IMG/VR virus record: IMGVR_UViG_3300043443_000090 | Location: 1 to 32,262 of that record | DNA: 32,262 nucleotides | Direction: 5' to 3' (one strand) | Source of the DNA: a virus | Taxonomy: Duplodnaviria > Caudoviricetes | Shown here: positions 10,442-31,220 of the stretch, in pieces | Layout: each line of letters opens with the position of its first letter | Position numbering within the stretch: the first letter of the stretch is position 1 | Program-made: the position numbers and the translations under genes | The notes under the pieces: model-generated | The model's database searches: none | What the model saw: the letters and a program-made list of their open reading frames with translations, nothing else | What the model was told of the DNA's origin: nothing

Positions 10442-13400
10442 GTCTTCGACGTCGTAGCCCATGGCCTGAAGCATCTCGACCGTCTCTGGCTTGATACCCT
10501 CCGGTGCAGACTTGAGGTAGCGAGCCAGAGTCGGACGGGACATCTCGCGGGCAGAGCGGAGCGCTGACTTCTCGAACCCGCTGATCTCCAGCCCAGTCCC
10601 TTGGGCATCTGCGTTCCACTCACGAACGTATTCACGGATCCGCTTCATGCCAGCCTGATCCGAATCCAGATACGCCTTGCGGTACGCCTGTACGTAGTCG
10701 GCCTTGATCTCCTTGGCGTAGGCATCCAACTGCTTGGACAGGCGCACCACGTCGTTCTGCAACGTAGCTTCGGCAGGGTAGAACCCAAGCATCCGCGCCA
10801 TGGCGAGGCCCACCCCGGCGTCGCTCGACACCACTTGCCCGTCCTTGTTGGTGACACGCCCATCTGCAAGATACATCGAGCCGTCTGCAATCGAGCGGAA
10901 CGCAGCAACCGGAGACTTGCGCAGGATATCCACGACACTCGTGGTGTCGTCACGCAGCCCAATAACTTCTGCTGAGTACCGGGCAATGTTGCCAGCGGTA
11001 GCCGTTGCGTCGATCAATCCGCCGACCGCAGGACCAGCGAAATCCTTGAGTTCCTGTGTCGGAGACGCACCTGCCCGCAGTGCGCCAGTCAGCGGTATCA
11101 GATCGCCCATACCCAAGCGGCTGGAGACTGTCACGCCAGTGAACTGATCGAGTACGCCCTTCATGATGGCCGGCGTCATGCCCGGTGCGACACCATCGAA
11201 GAACTCCATCAACTCCTTCTCCACGCTCGCCGTGGTCAGGCCAAGCTTCTGCATGATGGTATCCAGAATATCCATCAGGTCTTCCGCGAACGGTAGACCG
11301 CGCATACCACTGGCCAGCAGGAGGAAGCCGATCATCAACGCCCTGCCCTTGAGCGGCATGTTGCGCAGCAACTGAACAGTGATGATCGAGAACTGCTTGT
11401 ACATAAAGACGTACTGCATGAGGTTACCGCGAGCCATCTCTGGGCGGTTGAACATGCCGTACTCGCCTTGCGAGTCGTTCACTGCATCGCGGGCAAACTG
11501 CGCAGCCTTGGCCGAGGCATCCGCTTCCGACATACCCATGGCCAGAGCGCGTTCCTTCTCCAGCCGGTACGCAGCCATCGCAGTGACGCGACGGTTCATC
11601 TGCTCGGTGTAGCTGAACATACCCATCCATGTCTGGATGGCAGCCTGCATCTTGTTGTTGCGTGTGCCCTGACCACGCGCACTACCGATCAGCGCGTTGA
11701 ACAACGCAGCCTGCAACACACCTTCTTCCGTGGCAGCCAAGAGGAACCTAGCTTCGTCCTCCGTCATGCCGTAGTCAGCCCACTTGCCGGACTCCACGAC
11801 CTTGCTGATGAACCCACCGTCAGACAGGTTGTAGTTCTTCAGATCAGTCGCAGCCTTCCAGATGGCGTTGCTGGCCTTGTTGACCGAGAAGCCACCGCCG
11901 AATCCCATCTTCTCGTTGTGCGTTGCGAGATAGGGAATCGAGTGCGTCATCAGCGAGGTGAAGTTCACAAGCGCCGTGGCAACCGAGCCACCGAGCTGCG
12001 CCACAACCACCCACATCTTGAACTGCGACCCGACCTCACCGGAGAGCTTGTCCTCGGTGGACTCGATGATGTTGCCGGCGTCGGTGTACCACCGCAGGAT
12101 GCTCTTTGCTTCTTCTCGGTAGTCCTCGCCACGACCCAGCGTAGGCGTCTGCTTGCCACCGACCTCGACAGTCCGGCCTTGCGCCTCGGGCTTCATGTAC
12201 TGATACATGTAAGCATACTTGGCATACTCGCGCCGGGCTTCTGCCCGCTGCTCATCCGTAGTGGCGTTATCCACCGCAGCCTTCAGTGCAGCCAGCTTAG
12301 CGGCATCACCAAGCCAGTTCTCTTGACGCAGGAAGATATCGTCCATCCTATGACGGAAGCGCTTCTTCGCTGCCACGTGGGCAGTGGACTCAAGGTACTC
12401 GGACACCGACCGGATAACGTCCTTGTCCCAACCCGGAGTACCCGAGCGGAACAGATTCTTTCGCGCACGCGCGTTGGTGTCCGTCAAGGTCTTGACAATA
12501 CGTTCACGTTCGTCAGGCTTGATGTTGATGTTCATCCGGTTCAAGGCGTAGATGAACTCGTTGAAGTTGACCGCCTCGACCAGATCAGGACTCTGGCGTA
12601 CCCGCGAGACTTCAGCCGTCAGCCGGACCTCCATCTCCTTACCTTCACCAGTACCGTCATCAACCATCAACTTCCATGTCTTCTCGCCACCGAACGTATT
12701 GTTCAGGTCGGCCTGCATCTCCAGCGCCTCACGGCGACTGTCGAACTGGTAGTACGGCAGGATGGTCTTGGCGCTTTCGTGCAGCGTGACGTACCTACCC
12801 TGCATGTCCGTAGCCGTCAGCTTGACCTGCTGGTCACCACGGCGGGTGAAGGGGACATACGCACCCATGATGGTGCGCATCGCATAGTACTCTGCGTTCT
12901 GCGCCTGCAAGTCGAACATGAACTGGTCGCGGATCGCCTTTTGCACGACGAAGGACTTCTTGTCCGTCTGCACCTTGGCGGCAAGACTTGGCAACTGCTT
13001 GCGGATATCGTCGTACTCTGAGTTCTGGAACTCAGCCAGATCCGCCAAGACCTCTGGCTTTGCGTCGGGCCGCTTGAGCCACACAGCCATGACGTCATCG
13101 TTGAACAGCGCACGACCAACGGCGATCACAAGCCGTTCCGCCTTCTCACGAGACTCCTTGCGCAGTTCCTTGGATGCGTTCTGGATCGTGCTGCCCGCGT
13201 ACATTATCTCGATGTACCGACGCGAGACGTCCTTGATCGCCTTCAGGTCCTCATCCGTGAACATATCCAAGCCGGTGCGCTTGTAGTTCAGGTCGTTGAA
13301 GATGCGGGTCGACTCGTCTTGGGCTGCCTCGAAGTTGGCCAGCATCATGTCGACGGCTGCCTCGGCAACCGTGTTGCGCTGTTCGAGGTAGATCTTCCAA

Positions 13401-16312
13401 GCCGTGCTGTTCTCGTCGACGTTATCCTGAACAAGCTGCTCGGTTACGCCACCCTTGCCGTCGTCGTAGGTAACTTTGAAGCCCTTGCGGAACTCCTCTG
13501 CAGTGACGACGCCGAACGTCTTGAGCGCATCAATAGCTTTACGGTTGAGCGTCAGCGATCCGTCCGGCGACAACTGCACGATGGACTGCTGCTTGCGGAT
13601 CACCTCGTCGGTGGCCGCTCGACTGCGAAGCAGCGCAGCATGGGACAGATACCAGCCAGCCTTGATCTTGTCTTGGTCGGTGGTGCTGAACTCGTGGGTC
13701 ACACCAGTCATGCGCTCGTACTTGGCCAGCAGCCTACGGGCAAACTGCTGTTGTTTCTCGAGCATGTTGTAGATCAGCGACAGGCCATAGCTGCGCCGGG
13801 CCTTGTTGTCCAGCGTCTGGATGGCGTTGAGCGCCCGCGACACCACACCGGGTGCATCCTGCCTACGGGCAGCGATGTTCTTCCACGCATCAGCGAAGTT
13901 GAAGACGCCACCGTTGGGACCCTGCGATATGGCTTGCGTGTAGCCCATGGACGCAAAGCTGCTCGACACCGCATCGCTGAACGTCGACGGAGTTGCCCGC
14001 TGGAACCTACCCTCGGTAGCCGCGTACCCACTGGACAGCGACGCACCGCTGAACTCGAACCCACCCTTGCCAGTGCGGACGTACTTGCGTGCCTGCCCGA
14101 CCAGATACCGGGCCATGTCGTCCTTGAACGTGAAGCCCAGCTTGTTGAGGAAGTTCTTGAGCTGCGTCCAGAACCGGTACAGCACAGAGGTTTCCATCGT
14201 GGCAGCGTTGTCTGCCAGATACTCCTCGATGGCCTCAAGCTTGGACATGTTCTCGGCGACCATCATGCCGTCGATGACAGCCTTGGCAGCCGGGTCGGTC
14301 CGGTACACTTCTTCAAGGGCGGCGTCCAGCTCACGCTTGGGCATGACGCCAGAGAACCCGAAGTGGCCGAGCACTTCGTGCGCCATCAGGAAGCGAAGCT
14401 GTTGCTCGGTGCGGATGAAGTCCGAGAACACTAGGACCGTATCACCACCAAACGCGTAGCCCATCGCGTTGGATGCGACCGCATCGAAGTCGCCCTTGTA
14501 CGCAGCCTTGGCACGGCGGTAGAGCGCGTTGTCCTTGGTGCGCATGTCAGCGACGTTGGCAAAGACATGGACCGTGGGCCGCTTGTAGAAGCGCGACATG
14601 AGCGAGGCGATGACCATGCGGATGCGACCGACCGGGACCGTATCCCCCAGCACAGTGCCATCATCACGGCGGAACGCACCGTTCTTGTCGTCGTAGGGCG
14701 AGCCACTGCGCGAGCGCTCTGCCGATACTTCTTCCTTGCGGGCTTCAGCCGCAAGTCGCCTAGCTTCTTCCAGTGCAGCCTTGACGCGATCAGCCTCGAC
14801 CATCACGTCGGTATCAGAGACCTCCTCGGTAGTAACCACAAACGTGTTGGCCGCTGACCGGCGTCCCTTCGGGTTACCGTCGGCATCGAAGTAGTCGCGC
14901 AGTGGCTGACCACGGACGAGGTAGTCCTGCATGTCCTCGGACACGCTCTCATACAAGGCACGCATCCGCTTGAACAGTGCATTGATCTTGCGCTTGTCCG
15001 TGAACAGGATCTGGTCTTCCCCCCACAATCCGTTGATGAGGTTCTGGAGCTTGAACTCCGGTGTGTTCGTAATGGTCGTCGAGGTCGGAGCCGGCTTGGA
15101 CGGAGCGTCACGGAACTCCTTGGCCGTCTCCTCTGGCAGGTTCGACAACTGGATATCGCCAGAGGCGAGCTTTGCCTTGATCACTGCCTCAGGCATGTTG
15201 GTGATCTTCAGATCCGGCTTGGCTCGGGTTATCGCGCTGAGCAAATTGTTCTTGTCTGCGTACGTAAACCACGCGTTAACCTCGCCCTTGCGCTCGCCCT
15301 TGCCGGGGGCATACTGCAAAGACTTCAGATCCTTGATCAGCGTGACGAACTCCAGCGTCGCACGTTCATGCCGGTCTTGGGTAACCTGCAGTTCCTCCAT
15401 GAACTTGAGCGCAACCTTGACCAGTCCGTTCTTCAGGTTGTTGCTGTCGGTGTTGAAGAACGCCATCTGCATGACGTCAGAGATCGCAAGGCCGAATACC
15501 TTTACGCTCTTGGCGGACTTGGCCTCGTCCATGGCTTCTTGCAGATCTTCGGCGGCGCTGTATGCCTTCTCGGAACGCGCCATGAGTACTTCGCCAAGTT
15601 CGATATTGGCCCGGCCTTCCATGAGAGCCTTGGTCCACCGCTCCTGATCTTCAGGATTGAGGTTGGCAAACGTCACGAACTTGGACGTGCCGTCATTCAT
15701 CACCGCATCCCATTCCGCGCTGGCATTGTGTGCCCTGAGGATGCGTTCGCCGAGTTCACCTGTGGCCTTGTTGCGAGCGACAGCCGCTGCCCAGCGCTCC
15801 TGAGCCTCTGTGCTGAGTGCCTCGAACGGAGCAAACTCAGGCGAGCCGTCATCCATCATGTCGGACCAGAGTTCACCAGCCGATGCACTGGCAGCTTCTT
15901 TATGCTTGGCGGTAATAGTCTTGGCCGCCATGCGGCGACCTTCGCCAGCGGCGACAGCAGCCTTCCACTCGGTCTTGAGTTCCGGGCTGAGTACGTTGTA
16001 GTTGGGGGCGTCCTCCGGGGCGAAGTTGAACCAAGCCCTACGGGCCTGATCGTCGGTTACTTCTACTGCCGCTTCCGGGGTGGCGGCTACCGCCGCCTCA
16101 CCTTTTGGGCTGGGCTTGCCCTCCAAGGCAGCCTGCACCTGCTCACGCAACTGCTTGAAAGAATCCAGCGTATCGGAGATCGCCGCGACGTAGTTGGCCT
16201 GCACGTCGTCGGTTCCGTACTCGTTGGCCAAAGCCACAAATCTTTCGGCTTCCTTGTCGGTGATCTGGGCACCTTTGAAGCAAGCACGGAATCGCAAGTT
16301 AACGGTAGCCAT
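10436..16312 (-). CDS. Giant polyvalent internal virion/ejection protein (1958 aa) with metallopeptidase-like and PLxRFG-like regions
   Basis: AAGGGG RBS then ATG 16312. LMAHEVLGHFG...EEYLA is a zincin-like motif (~14363-14380). YVPFTRRG resembles the PLxRFG signature (~12840-12860). Largely helical; last gene of the virion operon. Confidence 0.75.
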   Translation of the reverse strand: MATVNLRFRACFKGAQITDKEAERFVALANEYGTDDVQANYVAAISDTLDSFKQLREQVQAALEGKPSPKGEAAVAATPEAAVEVTDDQARRAWFNFAPEDAPNYNVLSPELKTEWKAAVAAGEGRRMAAKTITAKHKEAASASAGELWSDMMDDGSPEFAPFEALSTEAQERWAAAVARNKATGELGERILRAHNASAEWDAVMNDGTSKFVTFANLNPEDQERWTKALMEGRANIELGEVLMARSEKAYSAAEDLQEAMDEAKSAKSVKVFGLAISDVMQMAFFNTDSNNLKNGLVKVALKFMEELQVTQDRHERATLEFVTLIKDLKSLQYAPGKGERKGEVNAWFTYADKNNLLSAITRAKPDLKITNMPEAVIKAKLASGDIQLSNLPEETAKEFRDAPSKPAPTSTTITNTPEFKLQNLINGLWGEDQILFTDKRKINALFKRMRALYESVSEDMQDYLVRGQPLRDYFDADGNPKGRRSAANTFVVTTEEVSDTDVMVEADRVKAALEEARRLAAEARKEEVSAERSRSGSPYDDKNGAFRRDDGTVLGDTVPVGRIRMVIASLMSRFYKRPTVHVFANVADMRTKDNALYRRAKAAYKGDFDAVASNAMGYAFGGDTVLVFSDFIRTEQQLRFLMAHEVLGHFGFSGVMPKRELDAALEEVYRTDPAAKAVIDGMMVAENMSKLEAIEEYLADNAATMETSVLYRFWTQLKNFLNKLGFTFKDDMARYLVGQARKYVRTGKGGFEFSGASLSSGYAATEGRFQRATPSTFSDAVSSSFASMGYTQAISQGPNGGVFNFADAWKNIAARRQDAPGVVSRALNAIQTLDNKARRSYGLSLIYNMLEKQQQFARRLLAKYERMTGVTHEFSTTDQDKIKAGWYLSHAALLRSRAATDEVIRKQQSIVQLSPDGSLTLNRKAIDALKTFGVVTAEEFRKGFKVTYDDGKGGVTEQLVQDNVDENSTAWKIYLEQRNTVAEAAVDMMLANFEAAQDESTRIFNDLNYKRTGLDMFTDEDLKAIKDVSRRYIEIMYAGSTIQNASKELRKESREKAERLVIAVGRALFNDDVMAVWLKRPDAKPEVLADLAEFQNSEYDDIRKQLPSLAAKVQTDKKSFVVQKAIRDQFMFDLQAQNAEYYAMRTIMGAYVPFTRRGDQQVKLTATDMQGRYVTLHESAKTILPYYQFDSRREALEMQADLNNTFGGEKTWKLMVDDGTGEGKEMEVRLTAEVSRVRQSPDLVEAVNFNEFIYALNRMNINIKPDERERIVKTLTDTNARARKNLFRSGTPGWDKDVIRSVSEYLESTAHVAAKKRFRHRMDDIFLRQENWLGDAAKLAALKAAVDNATTDEQRAEARREYAKYAYMYQYMKPEAQGRTVEVGGKQTPTLGRGEDYREEAKSILRWYTDAGNIIESTEDKLSGEVGSQFKMWVVVAQLGGSVATALVNFTSLMTHSIPYLATHNEKMGFGGGFSVNKASNAIWKAATDLKNYNLSDGGFISKVVESGKWADYGMTEDEARFLLAATEEGVLQAALFNALIGSARGQGTRNNKMQAAIQTWMGMFSYTEQMNRRVTAMAAYRLEKERALAMGMSEADASAKAAQFARDAVNDSQGEYGMFNRPEMARGNLMQYVFMYKQFSIITVQLLRNMPLKGRALMIGFLLLASGMRGLPFAEDLMDILDTIMQKLGLTTASVEKELMEFFDGVAPGMTPAIMKGVLDQFTGVTVSSRLGMGDLIPLTGALRAGASPTQELKDFAGPAVGGLIDATATAGNIARYSAEVIGLRDDTTSVVDILRKSPVAAFRSIADGSMYLADGRVTNKDGQVVSSDAGVGLAMARMLGFYPAEATLQNDVVRLSKQLDAYAKEIKADYVQAYRKAYLDSDQAGMKRIREYVREWNADAQGTGLEISGFEKSALRSAREMSRPTLARYLKSAPEGIKPETVEMLQAMGYDVEDL

Positions 16313-18212
16313 CAAAGAACCCCTTGGTGGTCAAGGCCACCAGAAGATCAGTAACCAGTTCATCTTCCTGCTGCAACTGTACCAGAGTGGGAAGATCTTT
16401 TTCAGGGCGGTAAGGCTCGAACTTGACACCGTGTCGGCGGGGTCGGCGGGCCGATACCACAGGAGCTGCGACCACGATCGCATCGGCGGCAAACGCAATG
16501 CCATCCAACGTGAACGCCATGGTCCCGGTGATTGCACCGGGCGAGGAAACTGTAGCGCTGGCGTTGACTGCGATCGTGTCGAGGGTCGCAGCAAGTGTAG
16601 CCGGGTGTCCCAGCGTAGCCGAGGAGGCTACCGTTACCCCGTCGAGGGTCGCAGCAAGTGTAGCCGGGTGTCCCAGCGTAGCCGAGGAGGCTACGGTAAT
16701 CCCATCCAACGTAACCGCCATCGTGGCGGTAAGACTTCCCCCGATGCTGGCGCTGGCAGCAAAGGTGATGCCGTCAAGGGTTACGGCAAGTGTGGCTGGA
16801 TGCCCCAGCGTTGCCGAGGAGGCGACGGCGACATCGTCAAGGGTGAACGCCATCGTGGCGGTCTTGCCCCCAGCGGTGACCGTTCCAGAGGCCGCGACCG
16901 TTACCGAGTCCAGCGTAAACGCAACGGTTGCTTCAAGCCTGTTCGCGGTATCGAATACAACGGGGTCAAATACCGCAATGTCAAATACCGGCAGCGTTAT
17001 CGAAGGCGCGATCGGGTTTACGGTTACGGTGGCTGCATTGGAGTAGACCGCGCCAGAGCCGGCATCGGTGACCAATACGAGGTACTGCCAACCGCTATCG
17101 GCAGTTGTCAGTGTGCCAGTCGTGTAGCTGCTAGAAGTGGCCCCAGAAAGAGTCGAGAACCCGCTTCCTGGGGTTTGCTGTCTGTACCACTGGTACGCAA
17201 GAGGTGCGCTTGTAGTGACGGCAGTAACGCTGAACGTCGCAGTGCTGCCGGTAGATATCGACTGATTCGCGGGCTGAACAGTGATCCCAGGCGACGGGAC
17301 AGTCAGCAGCGCTGAGCTAGACGTCGTCGTACCAACGCTGTTGGTTACCTGTACGCGGTACAGGTTGCCATTTTCAGTGAAGGTTACGGACGTTCTGTTG
17401 TATGTGCTGTTGGTGTAGGTGCCCGGCGCTTTGTCCCATGTCGAGCCACTGTTTACCGACTCCTCCCACTGGTACGTCATCGCACCAATGTTTGAGGTCG
17501 CCGAAACAGTAAACGTCGCCGTGGTGCCGTATGGCGCAACTACGTCGACAGGCTGCGCATCAATAACCGGAGCAGTGGCGATCTTGTATGTCGCCAGAGC
17601 AAGACGACTATTGATCGAATTGGTCGCCGTCCAAAGAGCGTTGGCAAGGGTAATGCTGGATACGGTTTGGTACGCCGCAGCCGACCAATAGTAGGTATTG
17701 GCGATGTCGTCAAACGACGTCGTATACCCAGAAGGGAACGTAGTAGTGCCGGGATCCGAGCTAAAGATGACCGTTGCGTAAACAAGCTCGTCAGCTTGAG
17801 TAGTAAAATCCGTGGCGTTGACGGAGCATAGCGTAGTTCCGGTAGGGGCAGCATTCCCGGTCGTATCAAGCGGCGTAGTGGCAAACCCTGACCACTCGTC
17901 AATTGACAGCGAGATTGAGAACGTATCTGCAGCAGGCAGATTGACGGTAACAGCCGTCTGACCGGAATTTACTACCCGAGCCCGGAATATATAGACAGCG
18001 CGGAACGTGTCCGTTTCGCGGGAGGAGTCTTTGGTGGCAGTGGTTCCGGCAATCGTGACCGACGAGATCAGGTTGTTAGCCTGCATCGCAATCGAGACGA
18101 TTACATCATTGCCTACCGTGAACGCAGAGGCGGCGTTGAATGTGATCGAGGATACGGGTGTACTTTGGTTTGCGCCAAGTAGCCCGGATCCTTGAACCAG
18201 TGTGGCTGCCAT
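16299..18212 (-). CDS. Ig-domain and beta-repeat fibre/decoration protein (637 aa)
   Basis: Ser/Thr-rich N-terminal domain; two Ig-like domains (PVIDAQP...TATFTVSA...TYQW...YRVQVTN and ITVQP...TATFSVTA...YQWY...YLVLVTD); FDIAVFDPVVFD motif; seven ~21-24-aa TLD repeats; C-terminal RRPRR...EDELVTDLLVAL. Confidence 0.75.
   Translation of the reverse strand: MAATLVQGSGLLGANQSTPVSSITFNAASAFTVGNDVIVSIAMQANNLISSVTIAGTTATKDSSRETDTFRAVYIFRARVVNSGQTAVTVNLPAADTFSISLSIDEWSGFATTPLDTTGNAAPTGTTLCSVNATDFTTQADELVYATVIFSSDPGTTTFPSGYTTSFDDIANTYYWSAAAYQTVSSITLANALWTATNSINSRLALATYKIATAPVIDAQPVDVVAPYGTTATFTVSATSNIGAMTYQWEESVNSGSTWDKAPGTYTNSTYNRTSVTFTENGNLYRVQVTNSVGTTTSSSALLTVPSPGITVQPANQSISTGSTATFSVTAVTTSAPLAYQWYRQQTPGSGFSTLSGATSSSYTTGTLTTADSGWQYLVLVTDAGSGAVYSNAATVTVNPIAPSITLPVFDIAVFDPVVFDTANRLEATVAFTLDSVTVAASGTVTAGGKTATMAFTLDDVAVASSATLGHPATLAVTLDGITFAASASIGGSLTATMAVTLDGITVASSATLGHPATLAATLDGVTVASSATLGHPATLAATLDTIAVNASATVSSPGAITGTMAFTLDGIAFAADAIVVAAPVVSARRPRRHGVKFEPYRPEKDLPTLVQLQQEDELVTDLLVALTTKGFFDGYR
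16578..16694. repeat. Tandem direct repeat, 63-bp period, 54 bp identical
   Basis: gtcgagggtcgcagcaagtgtagccgggtgtcccagcgtagccgaggaggctac at 16578-16631 and 16641-16694. Degenerate copies extend over ~16470-16935. Confidence 0.9.
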
Positions 18213-18223
18213 CTAGGGCACCT

Positions 18224-18568
18224 TTACGCGCGGATTTCGGCAGCGCGCCCCGGCGCGATCAATCCTTCTAGCTCAAAGTACGCCAGCGCGTCGATGACTT
18301 CCTGATTGTCGAGATCAATTTCTTCTGCAGCGTTAAAATCATTGCGCATGACAATAACGTTCACATCAGTAGACGTGTCGATACCAGTGCGCTCAGAGAA
18401 AGTGAACCGAATACGGAACTGATACTTGGTGATGATCCGCGGGGTCGGCAGCGGATCAAGATAGTTTGGATCAGCAGTGACCGCTTCAATTGTCCAGCCG
18501 CTGGGGACGGGGTCGTTGACCGGCAGCAACTGATAGTTGCCGTTGCCGTCAGAGAGTACGTTCCACAT
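18224..18568 (-). CDS. Putative fibre assembly chaperone (114 aa)
   Basis: ITKYQFRIRFT..ER..I...IDLD...GLI..GRAAEI resembles small proteins found next to phage fibre genes. Directly follows the fibre-like gene. Confidence 0.55.
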   Translation of the reverse strand: MWNVLSDGNGNYQLLPVNDPVPSGWTIEAVTADPNYLDPLPTPRIITKYQFRIRFTFSERTGIDTSTDVNVIVMRNDFNAAEEIDLDNQEVIDALAYFELEGLIAPGRAAEIRA

Positions 18569-18570
18569 GG

Positions 18571-19563
18571 TTAGATGTCCGTCTCAAGATAGAACTTGTT
18601 GAGGGCCAGAATCTTCGCCGTCGTGCCAGTGGTCGACCTGATATGAAACTTTGCCGCCAGAGCGCCAGTCGGCTGCGTGGCAGTGACGACTACGTTGTTG
18701 ACGTAGACAGTGCCTGTGATGGCATCCTTCAGCAGGTAAGTGACGCTGGTGCCACTGGGCGGCATGAATGCGGTGAAGTCCAGAATCTGCCCGGCTGTCG
18801 GTGTGACACCAGTCGCCGTCTTGGTTGTCGTGGTGCCGTTGCGGGTCATGATCTGCCAAGTAGTGTCGGCAGTGTCTTTGCCAATGCCGCAGAGACTGCC
18901 CGTCCACGTTGACGGATCCGTCGTCTGTGCAGCCACTGCCGATGTCAGACCCAAGAACATCTGTATTGATGACAGGTAGGTATCGACCGCGAACCGCATG
19001 TACATGAAGAACCCGGTTTCCGGCAAGGAAGCCACAGAGTTCGCGGTTGCGATTGTTGCGTTACCGAGCCCAGAAAAAATGGACGACGACGATGTTGCGT
19101 TGGTTCCAGTAGACAGGAGCGTTCGCCGCATCCTCGTGTATGCAGACGTGGTCGTGATCGCTGGGTTAGTTATACCAAGGGTTGCTGTTGCGGTGCCGCC
19201 GTTTAGGCTTACCCATGACGTACCAACATTTCCGACCACTAGAGAAGTCGTGTTCATCACGGTTGCCGTGACGCTATTGACTTGCTGGCCGCCACCGGGC
19301 GTGTACATGGTGATGGTGTTGCCGAAGAACGCCGGCTGGATGCCGACGTCGACGCCCGTAGGCCCAATCATGTTCAGCATGCGTCGACCAGCGCGACTCT
19401 TTGAGTACAAGCGCAAGTCAGCCGCAGGCGCTGCGGGATCAGTGGCCTGAACAGGAAAGTCCAGATACTGATCCAACGTGTGATCGTCATTCCACCGCGT
19501 TACGGATACTTGTTTCGTGGGGTCATTAGACCCCGTTGCTGTATATCCGTGCTTGATCGGCAT
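18571..19563 (-). CDS. Putative fibre/receptor-binding protein (330 aa)
   Basis: N-terminal IKH...D...V...WN..H motif; LRLYSKSRAGRRML...GP.G.D...QP; Thr-rich beta-sandwich-like C-terminus ending YLETDI. Confidence 0.6.
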   Translation of the reverse strand: MPIKHGYTATGSNDPTKQVSVTRWNDDHTLDQYLDFPVQATDPAAPAADLRLYSKSRAGRRMLNMIGPTGVDVGIQPAFFGNTITMYTPGGGQQVNSVTATVMNTTSLVVGNVGTSWVSLNGGTATATLGITNPAITTTSAYTRMRRTLLSTGTNATSSSSIFSGLGNATIATANSVASLPETGFFMYMRFAVDTYLSSIQMFLGLTSAVAAQTTDPSTWTGSLCGIGKDTADTTWQIMTRNGTTTTKTATGVTPTAGQILDFTAFMPPSGTSVTYLLKDAITGTVYVNNVVVTATQPTGALAAKFHIRSTTGTTAKILALNKFYLETDI

Positions 19564-19940
19564 TACGCATTACCTTCGGTAATCGTCGCCGACGTGATCG
19601 TGACCGTGTCGCTGATGGCGATCGTGGTGTTGGTGATGTTGATGTTGCTGCCAGACGTACCGACAGTCAGACCTTCCATCACCAGCGTGGAACCGTCGGA
19701 CTTGTAGATCCGGGCGATTGCCGCCGTACCCGCTGCGCTGGCTGTGCCTGCCGAGATGGCGTTGAGGGTAAGCACACCGCTCGATGCCGCAGCAGCGAAA
19801 GCCGAGGCATTGCAAATGCACTCAACCAACTGCGAAGCATAAGCTGCCGTGTAAATACGCAGCTTGGCACTGGTGCCAGCGAACGTCGTGATCTGGTCGG
19901 CGCGGTTGTTGCGCAGCGTTACGTTGAGTGCGATAGCCAT
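19563..19940 (-). CDS. Small beta-rich virion structural protein (125 aa)
   Basis: LRN..AD.I......KLRIY...F..A.SG.L......A...GTA..ARI...G.VGTSG....I....V.ITS.TITEGNA pattern, typical of small phage fibre or decoration subunits. Confidence 0.65.
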   Translation of the reverse strand: MAIALNVTLRNNRADQITTFAGTSAKLRIYTAAYASQLVECICNASAFAAAASSGVLTLNAISAGTASAAGTAAIARIYKSDGSTLVMEGLTVGTSGSNINITNTTIAISDTVTITSATITEGNA

Positions 19941-19942
19941 TA

Positions 19943-20299
19943 TTAAGCCTCAGAAGTTGCGTTGATGCGCTTGATTGTACCGTTGGGATTGCGCTCGAAC
20001 TCAAACGTCCACTTGGTAGGCGCTTGGGTTTTGGCCGGTGCAGCAACGGTTACCTGCGGTGTCGGCATGGTCGGAAGCTTGACTTCAACCGGACGATTGA
20101 TTGCAGCAAGTATCTGCTGCATAAGCTCGGGGGTCAACTCCTGCCGAGGGGCAGGAGCAGGCATGGGGGCAGGCTCGGGTTCAGGCTTGCTGCCCCGCAT
20201 CAGACGCTTGCCTTGGATACCAGCCGTGTTGAACTTGCGGCCGTCCGTGTACGCCACGGTAGACCCAGTCTCCAGAGCCAGCTCATCAAGATCGTACAT
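19943..20299 (-). CDS. Hypothetical protein (118 aa), Pro-rich linker, C-terminal WTFEFERNPNGTIKRI hairpin
   Basis: GGAG RBS. Tightly coupled to flanking genes (2-nt gaps). Confidence 0.7.
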   Translation of the reverse strand: MYDLDELALETGSTVAYTDGRKFNTAGIQGKRLMRGSKPEPEPAPMPAPAPRQELTPELMQQILAAINRPVEVKLPTMPTPQVTVAAPAKTQAPTKWTFEFERNPNGTIKRINATSEA

Positions 20300-20301
20300 G
20301 C

Positions 20302-23085
20302 TCAGGCTCCCTTGACGCAGTTCAACAGTTGCTCGAAGCGCTTGATCTTATCCTCGATTGTAGCAAGGAACTTCTTGCCATCAGGGTTTTCGAGGGTACT
20401 GCCGTCAGCAAGCGTGATGCTGATTGGTACAGGCGCTACTTCATCCGGAACAGCCCCGGCTTGTCCTTCTTCCTTGGGGACGGCCTTGCCTTTTCGGGTA
20501 AGCGTTTTCCGGGTGGGTACTTTTGCTCCCACTCCTGCGCCAGTTTCGGCAGGTTCGCGTGGAGGTACCGACGCTGCTTCTCGCTTTTGAACGGCATCTG
20601 CCTGCTCCTGTTCCGCCTTCGCCTTGGCAGCCAAGGCTTCGGCTGCCTGCTTCTCGGCTTCCTTGCGCGCCTGCTCAGCTTCCTTGAGCGCGACCTCAGC
20701 TTCCTTGCGAGCCTTGTCGGCTTCCTCAGCTTCCTTGCGGGCCTTCTTGAGCAGCTTGTCCGCGTTCTTGCGGGTCTGCGCAGCCGTGGCAGGCGGTGCC
20801 TGCTGACCTCCCGTCTCAGCAACTGGGGTGACAGGACCACGGCGCAAGGCCGCACCCTTGAGCGCAGCAACCGAAGGCTCACCAGCCTGCGTGAACATCG
20901 GCAACTGACCAGCCTGCTGGAACTCACCGGGCGTAGGCCGCTTGAGGGCTTGAGCCTTGGCGGTAACAGGCGGCTCCATGCCACGGCGCAGGCGCTCTGA
21001 TCCTGACGGACGAGGCAGCCCACGCGGACCGAACAGCGGTAACTGCTGCGGCACCTGCTCGGTAGGAACCTGCTGACGGACTTGCCTTACACCACGGCGC
21101 AGACTCTCGCCTGCCAGTTGCTGGTCACGTTGTACCAGAGCGCGTTCGTAGTCGGCATCAAGCTGGGCCTGCCGCTGTTGCATGGCAGCATCGAACTCTG
21201 CCTGACGCTGCGGAGAAAGCTGCGCTCGCTGGACCTGCTGCCCGAACTCTGTCGAGGGGGTAACGACCGGTGCTTCAGGGGCAGGCGGCGCAAACTGGAA
21301 CGGCATCTGCCCGGGCGGAACTTCCGGTGGGAGCTGCGGCAAGCCAGTGGTCGCATACTGCTCGGGCTGCATCCGCTGCGCAGTCTCGGCCTGCGACATG
21401 GGGAACAACGGAAGTACGCCCTGCTGTCCGGGCTGCAACTGGGCAGCCCCCGGTTGATCGAACGGAAGACCCAACTGCTCTGGCGCAGGACCAAACTCAG
21501 GTGCAACGGCTGGCGCAACACCGGGCATCGGTCCGGGCAACTGCGCTCCGAACAACTCACCCTGTGCTCCAGTGAACGCAGGCGCTGGCGGGCGAGGCGG
21601 GCGACGAGTTCTCTCCCGTGTTGGGAGAACTTGTTCTGCGGTAAGCGGCTCCGAGGAAGCAGCAGGGTTGAGCAGGTTGGCAGGCTTGTTACCGGAGAGA
21701 TTGGCGACAGCACCGATGGGGCCACCGACACCAAAGCCAGCGGCGAACGAGTTGACCAGTCGGTTGATACCTTCCGCCGAGTTCCAGTCAACGTCCTCAT
21801 TGGCAGCGAGGAGCAGCCCCTCCTGCGCAGCTTCTGTACCGCCCTCGAGCGCACCGCCCTTGAACAATCCAGCGCCCGCACGCTTGGCACCTTCGGTCAG
21901 CTTTCCACGGATACCGGGGACTTGCAGCAGCGGAGCTTTGGCTGCACCGATATTCCCGAATACCTTACCGGCCAACAGGAACTCGGGCAGCGTCTCAAAC
22001 GCAGCGTACGGAATGCCGAGCATCGCAGCGGTGGCGCGGTCAGGATCACCCGACTCAACGGTCTCGCCGTAGATATCCGCCACACCGGTAGCGTAGTTCT
22101 GCAAGCCAGTGGCGATACCAGCGCCACCGATACGAGCCTGCTGTGCCCCAAGCTTCAGAGCATCGCCAGCGCCTGCGTAGGCAGCAAACTGGTCAGCATT
22201 CATCAGCCCCTGAGGACTGGCGTACAGTCGACCCTGTTTGATCTGGGCAGCGGCGGTAGTACCGGCCATCTCATGCAGCAGCTTGGTCTCTGCGGCGTCG
22301 AGGACTTCACCCTTCTGGTACTTCTTGGCAGCGGCAAGCACAGCCTGCTTGACCGACTGACGACCCGCGAGGGCGGCCAGAGCGCCACCAGCGGCGGAGA
22401 ACGGGTTCGGGCCACCACCAGCGGCAGCACCAGCGCCAGCGCCAAGGGCGGCAGTTACCACCGACTCGACGATGTTGGGGCCTTGCTGCGCAAGGTTGGC
22501 TACGAACCAGTCGAGGACGCCACGGTTGGGCTGGCCGATGTCGGTCGCCATCCGCTCGTACGGGGAGGTCTTGCGAAGATCCTCCATCTGCTGGGCGACA
22601 ATGCCGCCACCCATTTCCTCGGCACCAGCGAACTGCAGCCCACGACCAGCCAGAAGCTGGGTCATGTCAACGCCACGTCCGAAGTTCTTGGACGCAAGCC
22701 GGCCAAGGCTGGGGTTGCGGATGGCCTGCAAGTACTGCCCGTACGCCTGCGCGTCGAGCGGGACCCAGTCACCCTGCGGCAAGCCGGTGCCCGGAGCGTC
22801 CAACAGCGGCTCGACCTCAAGCGCACGCTGCGCGTCATCGGCAGAGAACGTCTGACCTTGTACGTACAACTCGTTGCGCGAGGGGCTGAACGCGATCGAC
22901 GCCGGCATGACCGGCTTGGGGAACGAGAAGTCAGACGCCCCCGCCAGCCTCTCACCCATGGTAGCCATGTCGGTCAGCGACGACTCAAGCCCCTGCAAAC
23001 CAGCCGGCCGGTACGAGGCGTAGGGATTGGGGTCCTCGCCTGCAGTTATCCCCGGTCGCATTACACCAAACGGATCAATGGCCAT
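20302..23085 (-). CDS. Large internal virion/ejection protein (927 aa)
   Basis: Gly/Ala-rich hydrophobic segments with G..EGGTEAAQE, a Pro/Gln-rich disordered region, an EAE/K coiled-coil repeat, and C-terminal ...LLNCVKGA. Follows the lytic transglycosylase gene. Confidence 0.7.
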   Translation of the reverse strand: MAIDPFGVMRPGITAGEDPNPYASYRPAGLQGLESSLTDMATMGERLAGASDFSFPKPVMPASIAFSPSRNELYVQGQTFSADDAQRALEVEPLLDAPGTGLPQGDWVPLDAQAYGQYLQAIRNPSLGRLASKNFGRGVDMTQLLAGRGLQFAGAEEMGGGIVAQQMEDLRKTSPYERMATDIGQPNRGVLDWFVANLAQQGPNIVESVVTAALGAGAGAAAGGGPNPFSAAGGALAALAGRQSVKQAVLAAAKKYQKGEVLDAAETKLLHEMAGTTAAAQIKQGRLYASPQGLMNADQFAAYAGAGDALKLGAQQARIGGAGIATGLQNYATGVADIYGETVESGDPDRATAAMLGIPYAAFETLPEFLLAGKVFGNIGAAKAPLLQVPGIRGKLTEGAKRAGAGLFKGGALEGGTEAAQEGLLLAANEDVDWNSAEGINRLVNSFAAGFGVGGPIGAVANLSGNKPANLLNPAASSEPLTAEQVLPTRERTRRPPRPPAPAFTGAQGELFGAQLPGPMPGVAPAVAPEFGPAPEQLGLPFDQPGAAQLQPGQQGVLPLFPMSQAETAQRMQPEQYATTGLPQLPPEVPPGQMPFQFAPPAPEAPVVTPSTEFGQQVQRAQLSPQRQAEFDAAMQQRQAQLDADYERALVQRDQQLAGESLRRGVRQVRQQVPTEQVPQQLPLFGPRGLPRPSGSERLRRGMEPPVTAKAQALKRPTPGEFQQAGQLPMFTQAGEPSVAALKGAALRRGPVTPVAETGGQQAPPATAAQTRKNADKLLKKARKEAEEADKARKEAEVALKEAEQARKEAEKQAAEALAAKAKAEQEQADAVQKREAASVPPREPAETGAGVGAKVPTRKTLTRKGKAVPKEEGQAGAVPDEVAPVPISITLADGSTLENPDGKKFLATIEDKIKRFEQLLNCVKGA
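20436..20597 (-). CDS. Overprinted small basic protein (53 aa) nested out of frame in the 927-aa gene
   Basis: AGGAG (20609-20605), 7-nt spacer, ATG 20597. Reads MPFKSEKQRRYLHANLPKLAQEWEQKYPPGKRLPEKARPSPRKKDKPGLFRMK*. Confidence 0.65.
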   Translation of the reverse strand: MPFKSEKQRRYLHANLPKLAQEWEQKYPPGKRLPEKARPSPRKKDKPGLFRMK

Positions 23086-23088
23086 GTA

Positions 23089-24873
23089 TTACCCCATCGG
23101 TGCGTAGCTGGGCAGACCCGCAATCGGGCGGGCGGCATTCGATTGTACCTCAATACCGTCGATGGTGATCGTCTGACCTTGCGGGGTAAAGTAGAACGGC
23201 GACTGTCCGGGCGGGCGGATGAGGACCATGCCTTCGGAGCCGACGGGTTTGATCTCCCAGCCGGCGTTTGCCTTGACGTACTCCAGTGCCTGAGCAAGAT
23301 TGCCCTTGGTGCGCTCGACGGCAATGTCCTTGATCATCTCGCCATACAACTTCGACTGGTCTTCCTGCTGCTTCAGTCTCGACTCGAACTGCTTGGCGTT
23401 GAACTCGGCGGTCGCTGCAGACTGCTGCTGGCGGAACGCACTATCGAACGCCGCACGCGATCGGGAGGAAAGCTCTGTTGCGGAAATGCCACGGTCGGTA
23501 AGCTGCCCATTGACCAACACGTTGTACGTACCGTCCGAGCGCGGCTGGATGTTGATCGGCTGCCCGTAGTACATGGACCACACGGCGGCAAGCCGGCGCG
23601 GATCGTTGGACATCGCCAGTTCCTGCAGACCCTGCATACCCTGCAAGTGGGTCATGCCAGCATCCAACTCGAGGATCTTGGCCCGGACTTCCATGAACTG
23701 CTGGCCCATCCCGGAGCGCTGGTACATACCGGCCAGACGCGCAAGTTCCTCACGGACCTGACCCATCCGCTGGAACTCCATCGGGATCGACTGTTCCTCG
23801 CCGACGTACGCCTGCACCGGAGCGCCTGCGGCTTGGGCGGGAGCGCCTGCAGCCTGAGCGACCTGCACCCCCGGCTGGGCTCCCATCTTGGACAACACCT
23901 TGGGGATGTAGTCCCGCGTTTCCGCAGGGAGACGGTTGGGGTCAGCGCCTGCGGCGATCCATTCTTCTGCGTTGGCCGGACCCCAGTTGTAGGCAGCCAG
24001 TGCATGCTCGACATTGCCACCAAACTTGTTGAGCATTGCGGCAAGATAGTCACGGCCAACCCGGCGCTTTTCCTCAGGACTGTCGTCCTGCGCGGGAGTT
24101 ACACCGAAACCCGGATCACGTAGCGTACCAGCCATGGTCTGCATCGAGCCAGATGCGCCAGACTTGGGGTTCACCGCATACATGTTGCCGCCGCTCTCAA
24201 CCATCTCAACGGCGTTTGCAAGCGACCCAAACTGCGGAGCCTGCGGAGTCTGCGGGAGATTAAGGGCAGCCTCTGGCGACACCGCCGCCTCTGGCAAGTT
24301 AAGCGCACCAGCCACGGACTCAGGCGATACACCTGCTGGACGCCTAGCCAGACGACGCCCCGAAGGAGCAGCCCGACCACTAGCTGCGGTTTCTTGGATG
24401 TACTTGCGCAACTCGGCTTCGACTTGTGCGTCTGTTACCGTAGGTTTACCACTAGGGACACGGGCACCCGGTCTTACCATCGAGTAGGGCGACATCGCCG
24501 CCAACCCGGTTGTAGGCACCATATTCGGACCTTGAGCGGACTCTAGCCGGGTACGAATGCTCGCTCGCAGCTTCTGCATTTCAGCAGGAGAAAGATCCCA
24601 TGTACGCTCCGGCGTAGTGGGCTTTGCAACTTCTTCCTGTTGCTGCGGCTCCGGAGGAGCTACCTGCTCGACGCCAAGCTTCGGGGCTGCCATACGCTGG
24701 TACTCAGGCGCAGCCGGCAAGGGCTGGGAAGCAGCTTCCCTGCGGAACTGGTCGAGGCGGTTCTGCTCCTCGATCTGGAGTTGGCGCTCACGCGACTTAC
24801 GAGCCTGTTCCTCGCCAGTACGAAAGCCAGTGGAGGCGGCACCAGCACGACCAAGGATCAACCCAAGTGCCAT
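23089..24873 (-). CDS. Internal virion protein with soluble lytic transglycosylase (SLT) domain
   Basis: VESGG (catalytic Glu), GASGSMQTM, G.DYL..ML..F.G....ALAAYNWG, ETRDYI.KV. Confidence 0.88.
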   Translation of the reverse strand: MALGLILGRAGAASTGFRTGEEQARKSRERQLQIEEQNRLDQFRREAASQPLPAAPEYQRMAAPKLGVEQVAPPEPQQQEEVAKPTTPERTWDLSPAEMQKLRASIRTRLESAQGPNMVPTTGLAAMSPYSMVRPGARVPSGKPTVTDAQVEAELRKYIQETAASGRAAPSGRRLARRPAGVSPESVAGALNLPEAAVSPEAALNLPQTPQAPQFGSLANAVEMVESGGNMYAVNPKSGASGSMQTMAGTLRDPGFGVTPAQDDSPEEKRRVGRDYLAAMLNKFGGNVEHALAAYNWGPANAEEWIAAGADPNRLPAETRDYIPKVLSKMGAQPGVQVAQAAGAPAQAAGAPVQAYVGEEQSIPMEFQRMGQVREELARLAGMYQRSGMGQQFMEVRAKILELDAGMTHLQGMQGLQELAMSNDPRRLAAVWSMYYGQPINIQPRSDGTYNVLVNGQLTDRGISATELSSRSRAAFDSAFRQQQSAATAEFNAKQFESRLKQQEDQSKLYGEMIKDIAVERTKGNLAQALEYVKANAGWEIKPVGSEGMVLIRPPGQSPFYFTPQGQTITIDGIEVQSNAARPIAGLPSYAPMG

Positions 24874-30693: not shown

Positions 30694-30903
30694 CTATTTC
30701 CTGTCCGTAACAGTACCACACCACGCGGCCCGGCGTGCATTGTTCAGCTTGACTTCCGCCACCGTTTCTGGGGTGTCGCGGCTGCTCCATGACACCGGTT
30801 GCCAGACGGCGCAGACCTCAGTCCCGCTGATTCTCGTCAGGGGCGTACACGCCGGCAGCAGCGATATCACGGCGAACGCGAGCGTCAGCGTCCATCGCCT
30901 CAC
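30694..30903 (-). CDS. o-spanin (Rz1-like outer-membrane lipoprotein)
   Basis: RRWTLTLAFAVISLLPA-C signal peptide and lipobox, further Cys residues, overlapping the i-spanin 3' end in another frame. Start uncertain (30903 or 30945). Confidence 0.7.
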   Translation of the reverse strand: MRRWTLTLAFAVISLLPACTPLTRISGTEVCAVWQPVSWSSRDTPETVAEVKLNNARRAAWCGTVTDRK

Positions 30904-31039
30904 GCAACTTCCGGTTGGCAGTCTCGGCGGCATCAAGTTGCACATCGGTTTCTCCTACCTGACGTCCGAGTCTGGAGGCGAACCAGAAGATCACCCCCAG
31001 ACCCAGAAAGATGCCGACCGACAAGGCCAGCAGGGTCAC
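30818..31039 (-). CDS. i-spanin (Rz-like)
   Basis: GGAGG RBS and GTG 31039. N-terminal TM helix followed by a helical periplasmic region ending DENQRD. Confidence 0.7.
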   Translation of the reverse strand: MTLLALSVGIFLGLGVIFWFASRLGRQVGETDVQLDAAETANRKLREAMDADARVRRDIAAAGVYAPDENQRD

Positions 31040-31040
31040 G

Positions 31041-31220
31041 TCACGCCTCCGGCTTGTGGTCGGGTGAGAACGCGCCAACCAGACCGGCCAAAGCCAGACC
31101 AGCAGCGATCACAGCCTCGACCTGCTCGGCACTGAACACCACGCCGACAGCAGTCGCCAGCATGATCAGACCGCGCCAAGTCGACGCTTCGGACATACGC
31201 GCCAAAAGATATTCCTTCAT
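31041..31220 (-). CDS. Putative holin (59 aa, two TM segments)
   Basis: ATGA overlap with the endolysin. R..EASTWRGL followed by two hydrophobic segments. Confidence 0.65.
   Translation of the reverse strand: MKEYLLARMSEASTWRGLIMLATAVGVVFSAEQVEAVIAAGLALAGLVGAFSPDHKPEA

Follow-up and report, generated by a model that had tools for sequence, protein, structure and literature searches.

The stretch of DNA analysed here (the window, IMG/VR record IMGVR_UViG_3300043443_000090) is a partial phage record of 32,262 bases, 59% complete, in which the plus strand carries the replication genes and the minus strand the structural and lysis arm. Within a 927-aa open reading frame (ORF) of the minus strand (23085-20302) lies a much smaller ORF, shifted +1 and wholly contained over host residues 830-883; its ATG start occupies 20597-20595, its stop ends at 20436, and it is located 134 nt ahead of the host stop and of a five-ORF cassette. 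The 53-aa product (MPFKSEKQRRYLHANLPKLAQEWEQKY...) has a computed isoelectric point of 10.6 and a net charge of +11. The original prediction, made from the letters of the window, had proposed an AGGAG-7nt-ATG signal and a 53-aa basic peptide inside the 927-aa gene, and both are confirmed on the minus strand at 20609-20436. The nested ORF belongs to a family beginning MPFKS, here called type A, and its place in the host gene is called the slot. The features of the locus are:

20302-23085, minus strand: host gene, 927 aa, likely an internal virion (ejection-type) protein, the role being taken from position
20609-20605, minus strand: Shine-Dalgarno (SD) sequence AGGAG, 7 nt ahead of the nested ATG, reading E-Q-E in the host frame
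20597-20436, minus strand: nested 53-codon type A (MPFKS family) gene in the +1 frame of the host, the occupant of the slot
20499-20597, minus strand: conserved core, codons 1-33, with a helix at 6-15, Pro17 and a helix at 17-26 predicted
20439-20498, minus strand: variable K/R/P-rich tail, codons 34-53, of low model confidence
20598-21023, minus strand: open part of the peptide frame ahead of the nested start (195-aa GTG ORF), outside the nested gene

In a 27-row alignment, residues P2, F3, K4, S5, Q8, P17, A20 and W23 of type A are invariant, and the whole ORF measures 45-98 codons in relatives. An AlphaFold model of the peptide places helices at residues 6-15 and 17-26 with a predicted local distance difference test score of 80-90 and gives low confidence to the tail; the small model of the peptide has a predicted template-modelling score (pTM) of 0.37. 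Upstream of the nested start, the peptide frame is open for a median of 15.5 codons in relatives (range 2-163), and given so short a stretch neither the GTG start of the 195-aa ORF nor a frameshift product was accepted. A search ahead of the nested ATG revealed no promoter-like site, and RNA folding around this start is mildly weak (10th percentile). The window by itself is weak evidence for a gene, because, when the host segment is recoded with synonymous codons 10,000 times, 10.7% of the versions retain the start, the SD sequence and the open frame, a test that is circular in that the host residues are themselves shaped by the overlap. The comparative data below put the nested gene far beyond chance.

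Conservation of the nested frame

Relatives were gathered by the N terminus of the host protein and not by the peptide, to avoid peptide bias. This sample comprises 168 loci including the window, in 91 clusters at 90% identity, of which 65 are informative; the other 26 were left out as too short, although the nested ORF is still visible in 4 of these. Type A is present at the same place and frame in 41 of the 65 informative clusters. The first profile located a type A ORF in the host gene in 44 clusters, always in the +1 frame and at positions ranging from host residue 538 to 1160, and in control frames the peptide profile score was never above 9.9 bits. The 44 nested starts comprise 28 ATG and 16 GTG codons, two of them one codon off the profile register, and the host residue at the start codon is variable (D, N, Y, S or R). 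An SD match of at least 4 nt is found ahead of 43 of these starts, compared with 368 of 6,164 (6.0%) other +1-frame ATG or GTG codons in the same host genes. A diverged type A clade (L084, L090, L126, L165, L203 and L242) lacks the PF start, having V-x-L/K-K-S-Q instead; all six members are GTG-started and keep the SD sequence, position and frame.

Among 33 strong copies, mean identity is 55% for the peptide and 37% for the host over the same bases, the peptide being the higher in 521 of 528 pairs. The ratio of nonsynonymous to synonymous change (omega) was calculated by a simplified version of the site classes of Wei and Zhang (PMC4316641). Over 19 independent pairs, omega is 0.26 for the peptide (bootstrap 0.19-0.32) and 1.15 for the host (0.72-1.65), and across four settings it ranges from 0.17 to 0.41 in the peptide frame and from 0.66 to 1.73 in the host frame. 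In 22 host-only control windows just upstream the values are 0.82 for the peptide frame and 0.22 for the host frame. The host ORF stays open through the overlap in all nested loci listed. These values indicate that the nested frame is under purifying selection and that the overlapped part of the host frame evolves close to neutrality. The original prediction had called the region truly dual-coding, with its own ribosome-binding site (RBS), and had named frame-specific selection across homologs as a check; the SD counts (43 of 44 against 6%) and the peptide-frame omega (0.17-0.41 against 0.82 in the control) bear this out, with constraint on the peptide frame and relaxation of the host frame.

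Strains were compared using contigs of four public runs from four studies, three of which span the nested ORF fully; no RNA runs are among the public sequencing runs listed for the region. The five best-supported differences in the nested ORF fall in codons 33-48 and create no stop, and no insertion or deletion occurs in it among the differences listed, beyond which lie 50 further ones. Within codons 1-33 the sole best-supported change listed is synonymous, at codon 33. On these comparisons the nested frame is almost certainly a real translated gene.

Exchange of the slot occupant

The same host position can be occupied by a different basic ORF, type B, which has 57-63 codons, begins MPLKKG and shares the frame, the SD sequence and the ATG or GTG start. 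Of the 65 informative clusters, 40 hold type A alone, 15 type B alone, one holds A and B in different members and nine hold neither; by locus, 71 of 114 carry A, 27 carry B, 16 carry neither and none carries both. Type B has an omega of 0.24 against 1.68 for the host (9 pairs). It matches phrog_2423 in 8 of 8 members (E of 6e-6 or better), and 3 of 8 match DUF6496 (PF20106) at 14.8-16.3 bits, under the curated cut-off of 24 bits. Type B is likely a distant relative of DUF6496, its Atlas neighbour clusters containing 17% DUF6496. Profile comparison of A with B gave a probability of 3.7% and an E value of 0.012 over the first 26 columns, with no convincing homology, although a remotely shared N terminus is conceivable, and the predicted folds differ in helix lengths.

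Several pairs of loci show replacement or loss of the whole gene. L111 (type A) and L172 (type B) have near-identical flanks and the same RBS and GTG, and diverge in a block that extends from the second or third codon to the stop. L095/L104 and L235/L234 show the same A/B switch at the start codon, and comparison of L109 with L163 shows the nested ORF lost through a clean in-frame gap in L109. The window's nearest relative, L170, holds type B. On a quick tree of the host N terminus, whose labels predate the recognition of L098, L151 and L222 as type B, type B (12 labelled rows) requires 11 changes, equal to shuffled labels.

Whole-record searches, with positive controls found in 3 of 3 cases for each type, detected no type A in 13 records with B or neither (seven of them at least 90% complete) and no type B in 16 records with A or neither (ten at least 90% complete). 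Exclusion of A and B at one site is partly positional, and it is their absence from whole records that suggests substitution of one by the other. Judged from these comparisons, the slot is very probably exchangeable between type A and type B occupants.

The family beyond this host gene

A search with the peptide recovered 563 relatives among 600 scanned viral stretches, and the type A family comprises 3,569 representatives at 50% clustering (E<=0.001), with tool estimates of about 2,400-2,600 stored viral stretches carrying it. The original prediction was right that this is a recurrent small phage protein that also stands alone, and the homolog check proposed for the 53-aa peptide returned stand-alone, N-terminal and nested copies. 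The 80 loci kept consist of 23 nested copies, 26 at the N terminus of proteins of at least 110 codons and 31 short stand-alone genes; the last two counts were made by hand, and two of the 31 stand-alone loci are cut. Nearly all of the best 150 family matches begin at protein position 1. A scan of 120 loci with a DNA pattern that favours nested forms gave 72 nested, 38 stand-alone, 7 cut and 3 fused copies among the loci listed, a few of the "stand-alone" rows being in fact nested near the host start. Stand-alone and fused copies have stops in the frame equivalent to the host frame here, and the peptide therefore does not arise as the shadow of a motif in the host protein. A de novo overprinted gene would be the more narrowly distributed frame and would lack homologs elsewhere, which is at odds with the 3,569 representatives and the stand-alone, fused and other-host copies.

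Nested hosts other than that of the window include several clusters of 1,200-2,700-aa proteins without a BLAST link to the window's host, some of which may be its remote kin, and GenBank MW202828 holds an unannotated type A copy within a 3,860-codon gene. A further nested host is a gene of about 400 aa between the portal and capsid genes, likely a scaffold gene. Of 80 scaffold loci gathered by the host C terminus, 68 carry a basic +1-frame ORF of one of three kinds: 20 have A, 42 a type C and 6 a type D, and the other 12 have none of them. A tandem arrangement of A and C occurs in 7 further loci. Type C has an EWL...NKKKY motif and an omega of 0.13 against 0.57 for the host (20 pairs). It matches phrog_6310 weakly, and type D matches no PHROG family. 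The scaffold gene of the cultured elemo Flavobacterium phage has no nested copy. The additional features in these and other phages are:

L414-L493, scaffold N-terminal region: nested basic ORFs of types C and D, +1 frame
L254:4001-4123 (P-RSP2), L409:5001-5111 (S-CBS2) and L413:5001-5132 (MED4-184): unannotated stand-alone copies

The last three are stand-alone copies missing from the GenBank annotation, of type A in the cultured cyanophages P-RSP2 and S-CBS2 and of type B in MED4-184. Phage C75C1 (L251:3625-4483) has a cluster of several small K/R-rich genes, and its GenBank annotation omits the MPFKS ORF and the next ORF, an overlapping frame being called instead. The MPFKS module is also found at the N terminus of 200-930-aa proteins (L004, L008, L012, L031, L057, L069, L074 and L277), many of which bear GG-I/L-x-x-L repeats or ends; the L277 protein (926 aa) has, on visual inspection, the appearance of a prohead protease/scaffold fusion, with no PHROG support. 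In about 20 Acidobacteriaceae assemblies and one Verrucomicrobiae assembly (L382-L405) there is a conserved stand-alone branch of 50-59 aa with a strong SD sequence. Several of these copies are on very long contigs, and phage neighbours went undetected in the four that were scanned; cellular domestication is possible.

Library searches yielded little of functional value. Type A has no match in Pfam, nor in the PDB by sequence or by Foldseek, and its nearest Atlas clusters are all hypothetical. The match to phrog_1375 is weak (E 0.0017 for the window peptide, 4.7e-05 for the best member, and E<=0.1 for 18 of 27 members). A VIA structure comparison of the small model (pTM 0.37) reached a best Z of 2.7, and BFVD returned uncharacterised homologs, none at E<=0.001. 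An identity with DUF3008 (PF11450) was rejected, since it was an Atlas lead at 0.83 only and the Pfam profile matched none of 27 plus 16 members. The tblastn matches in ECBP2 and Bas88 were also set aside, as their E values are 0.2-0.3, they fall in the reading frame of a large gene and the profile does not match them, and the string "mpfks" in the literature was a chance string in the paper checked. The entries phrog_1375 (type A) and phrog_2423 or DUF6496-like (type B) come with no assigned function and were built from called genes; they represent neither the nested copies nor the exchange between these. No account of the family, its nesting or nested-gene exchange was found in a literature search that left supplements and most subscription journals outside its reach, and small-gene catalogues may already list the family.

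Origin, function and setting of the nested gene

The usual account of overlapping viral genes is that a new reading frame emerged within an older gene. The description of this gene as "overprinted" in the original prediction holds for the nesting, but not for the birth of a new frame on the host, since the peptide is the more widely distributed and the more strongly constrained of the two, and the host frame is near neutral. The small gene is probably older than the overlap: it would be ancestral because it is the more widely distributed frame, the phylogenetic criterion described in PMC8227390, and the pattern of selection agrees. The same source portrays classical overprinted frames as lineage-restricted and without homologs; the arrangement here is like viral overprinting in being a same-strand internal overlap with two proteins per stretch, and unlike it in that the small nested frame appears to be the old, constrained one and the overlap recurs in unrelated structural genes. 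The overlap could have originated when the host frame came to run through the small gene, or by in-frame capture in a tolerant linker, and occupants could have spread by recombination in the conserved host flanks. The constant +1 frame is likely due to the codons AAA, AAG and AGA, which when read one base earlier give the E/Q/K/R residues of a linker and few stops.

The original prediction that the ORF may encode a DNA-binding core peptide is plausible by analogy. Of 39 stand-alone type A loci, 23 neighbour head-and-packaging genes, 4 GroES-like genes, 3 tail genes and 2 DNA metabolism genes, with 7 uninformative. Type B lies after the portal gene in DSL-LC04 and between head morphogenesis and capsid genes in MED4-184, forms the N terminus of the AP22 head maturation protease and in phiCbK lies among tRNA genes. 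In the proposed mechanism, ribosomes would load internally on the late structural mRNA at the nested RBS, the helical hairpin (residues 1-27) would anchor the peptide inside the prohead or target it there, and the DNA would be neutralised by the K/R tail. A head-internal DNA-binding role, which leans on resemblance to other systems, is evenly balanced between right and wrong. The combined reading, in which the gene is a conserved family member in an exchangeable slot, translated from its own RBS into an accessory DNA-binding head peptide, is somewhat favoured. With a slighter preference still, we suggest that in aquatic tailed phages the linkers of ejection-type and scaffold proteins may be landing pads for pre-existing small basic genes of at least four families, which would be inserted, exchanged from start to stop and deleted as whole units in the +1 frame without closing the host frame. 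Overlaps would then come about by capture and exchange, and a widespread class of interchangeable DNA-packing head peptides, with an N-terminal hairpin that also targets the capsid, would be hidden.

A number of points weigh against this combined reading. The nested gene and its product are known here from sequence alone, and the assignment of function rests on charge and gene context because there is no Pfam or PDB match and the phrog_1375 match is weak. The basic tail is partly expected from a shifted E/K-rich linker. The neighbour count was made without a random-gene control, and viral contig collections favour hallmark genes; limiting the omega set to copies with a peptide-profile score of at least 30 bits tilts it mildly toward conserved sequences. 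Of the five listed strain changes in the nested ORF, four change the host protein and three change the tail of the peptide. Nine clusters are without A and B, and the two complete genomes among them mean that the occupant is accessory or replaced by undetected substitutes; it is thus not essential, or its substitutes escaped detection. The roughly 20 Acidobacteriaceae-type stand-alone copies without detected phage neighbours are left unexplained by a virion role.

Among the alternatives, it is conceivable, though rather unlikely, that the gene is real and that the peptide or N-terminal module is a protein-binding capsid-targeting or assembly signal modulating scaffold or core assembly. The T4 capsid-targeting signal has about 10 residues and is cleaved, unlike the predicted 27-residue hairpin here, and the module is found alongside widely differing capsid systems, a range that speaks for a partner common to all of them, such as DNA. 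A targeting role agrees with the finding that many long proteins with no relation to each other begin with the module at residue 1 (26 of 80 loci), with type B as the N terminus of a head maturation protease, and with the description in PMC3012670 of a conserved targeting sequence as the only part common to T4 internal proteins. An improbable alternative is a non-virion late protein, such as a basic protein that binds nucleic acids or ribosomes, or one that serves in host takeover or counter-defence, with alleles swapped under host pressure. The patchy swapping (11 changes for the 12 type B rows), the dispensable occupant, the apparently chromosomal Acidobacteriaceae copies and the 2 of 39 stand-alone copies among DNA-metabolism genes would all fit, but selection is strongly purifying and not diversifying, and structural operons are the location in most annotated contexts.

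A cationic lysis peptide that disrupts the outer membrane, like the disruptin gp28 of phiKT, comes close in size and charge (gp28 has 56 aa; 10.1101/515445), and in FlowerPower the copy is flanked by a peptidase gene and a holin gene; it is nevertheless highly improbable, as the FlowerPower host is Gram-positive, head genes form most contexts and the window includes a separate lysis cluster in which there is an Rz/Rz1-like pair. That pair (30694-31078, minus strand) follows an M15 endolysin (31642-31217) and consists of an 86-aa Rz-like ORF with a transmembrane segment (31078-30818) and an Rz1-like, lipoprotein-like ORF (30945-30694); it was called by layout and lipobox, with weak PHROG support (E 0.023). 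There is scarcely any likelihood that the ORF, instead of being a gene in its own right, is a relic, a frameshifted C-terminal extension or a side effect of constraint on the host amino acids: the window alone is not significant (10.7%) and its peptide frame is open for 163 codons upstream, but the host frame is the unconstrained one, ATG and GTG interchange with the SD sequence retained, the upstream stretch is short in relatives, and stand-alone copies have stops in the host-equivalent frame.

The reading as an exchangeable nested gene for an accessory head peptide can be set beside several known systems. Nested phage genes are already known from Rz/Rz1 (lambda and LambdaSo; 10.1101/2024.01.23.576932), likewise a small +1 nested gene with its own RBS that is missed by annotation, and what appears new is this family, its nesting and the exchange of nested genes, of which no account was found. 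Rz1 is described there as a lipoprotein that acts in lysis together with the protein of its host gene; the peptide here has no signal peptide, its host gene is structural and relaxed in frame over the overlap, and the slot accepts members of different families, which interchange. Identity as an embedded Rz/Rz1 spanin was rejected, the peptide having no cysteine or hydrophobic signal and the lysis cluster lying 10 kb away. Phage morons are accessory genes located between genes, often with their own promoter and terminator; the slot occupants likewise appear to be accessory genes that recombination in conserved late-operon flanks can add, remove or swap, and differ in being units of RBS and ORF inside a coding frame, with no promoter-like site upstream. 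The internal proteins of T4 are dispensable and vary between strains. They have a conserved N-terminal module on diverse bodies and lysines that contact packaged DNA, as set out in PMC3012670, but there is no sequence match to them, the T4 genes stand alone and targeting by the module here is putative. The phiX174 J and SpV4 VP8 proteins (PMC11281519) are also tiny and K/R-rich, with an ordered anchor and a basic part, at the capsid interior, a location that would be shared here by inference; as portrayed in that source, they come from ssDNA microviruses, have a C-terminal hydrophobic anchor and are not nested in a structural gene. The likeness is a functional analogy only, no match being found by sequence or by Foldseek and the best VIA Z being 2.7 on the small model.

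If the preferred reading is right, overlapping genes can arise by capture and exchange and not by de novo birth, and start-to-stop replacement at one site provides a natural, replicated data set on the origin and exchange of overlaps, in which slot swaps inform on which proteins can stand in for each other. A large unannotated family is indicated, of which GenBank misses even stand-alone copies (P-RSP2, S-CBS2 and C75C1), and hidden exchangeable genes, likely for DNA-packing peptides, have probably been overlooked in phage genomes. The recurring D/N-A-V/I-Q "motif" of giant phage proteins would be explained as the shadow of the nested gene.

The genes around the host gene in the window are:

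23089-24873, minus strand: 594-aa gene with a lytic transglycosylase domain (PF01464, E 5e-14), directly upstream of the host
10436-16315, minus strand: 1959-aa gene, corresponding approximately to the C-terminal two thirds of the relatives' fused protein

No cultured phage was found to carry the window's host gene, and Pfam and PHROG searches of the 927-aa protein gave no match. The original prediction called it an ejection gene; it likely encodes an internal virion protein, a role assigned from its position after the SLT-domain gene, whose 594-aa product has PHROG matches to lytic tail and internal virion proteins. In most relatives the 927-aa protein forms the N-terminal third of a 2,200-2,860-aa ORF; in the window (10436-23085) this giant gene is split into 927 aa and 1959 aa by the five-ORF cassette at 16299-20299, which contains virion structural, Ig-domain and unknown genes. 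The profiles phrog_11358 and phrog_21376 match both the 1959-aa protein and the 2701-aa protein of L082. The split host form carries its own C-terminal segment ending L..C, common to many homologs, and recurs in L128, L130 and L244, where the first cassette gene is the same and the later genes are different. The original prediction was correct in placing the nested gene just upstream of the cassette, but this nearness is coincidental: in most relatives the gene lies inside the unsplit ORF, without a cassette. On the plus strand, an antisense open frame of 1013 codons (21082-24123) extends over the host and SLT genes and is likely a by-product of high GC content.

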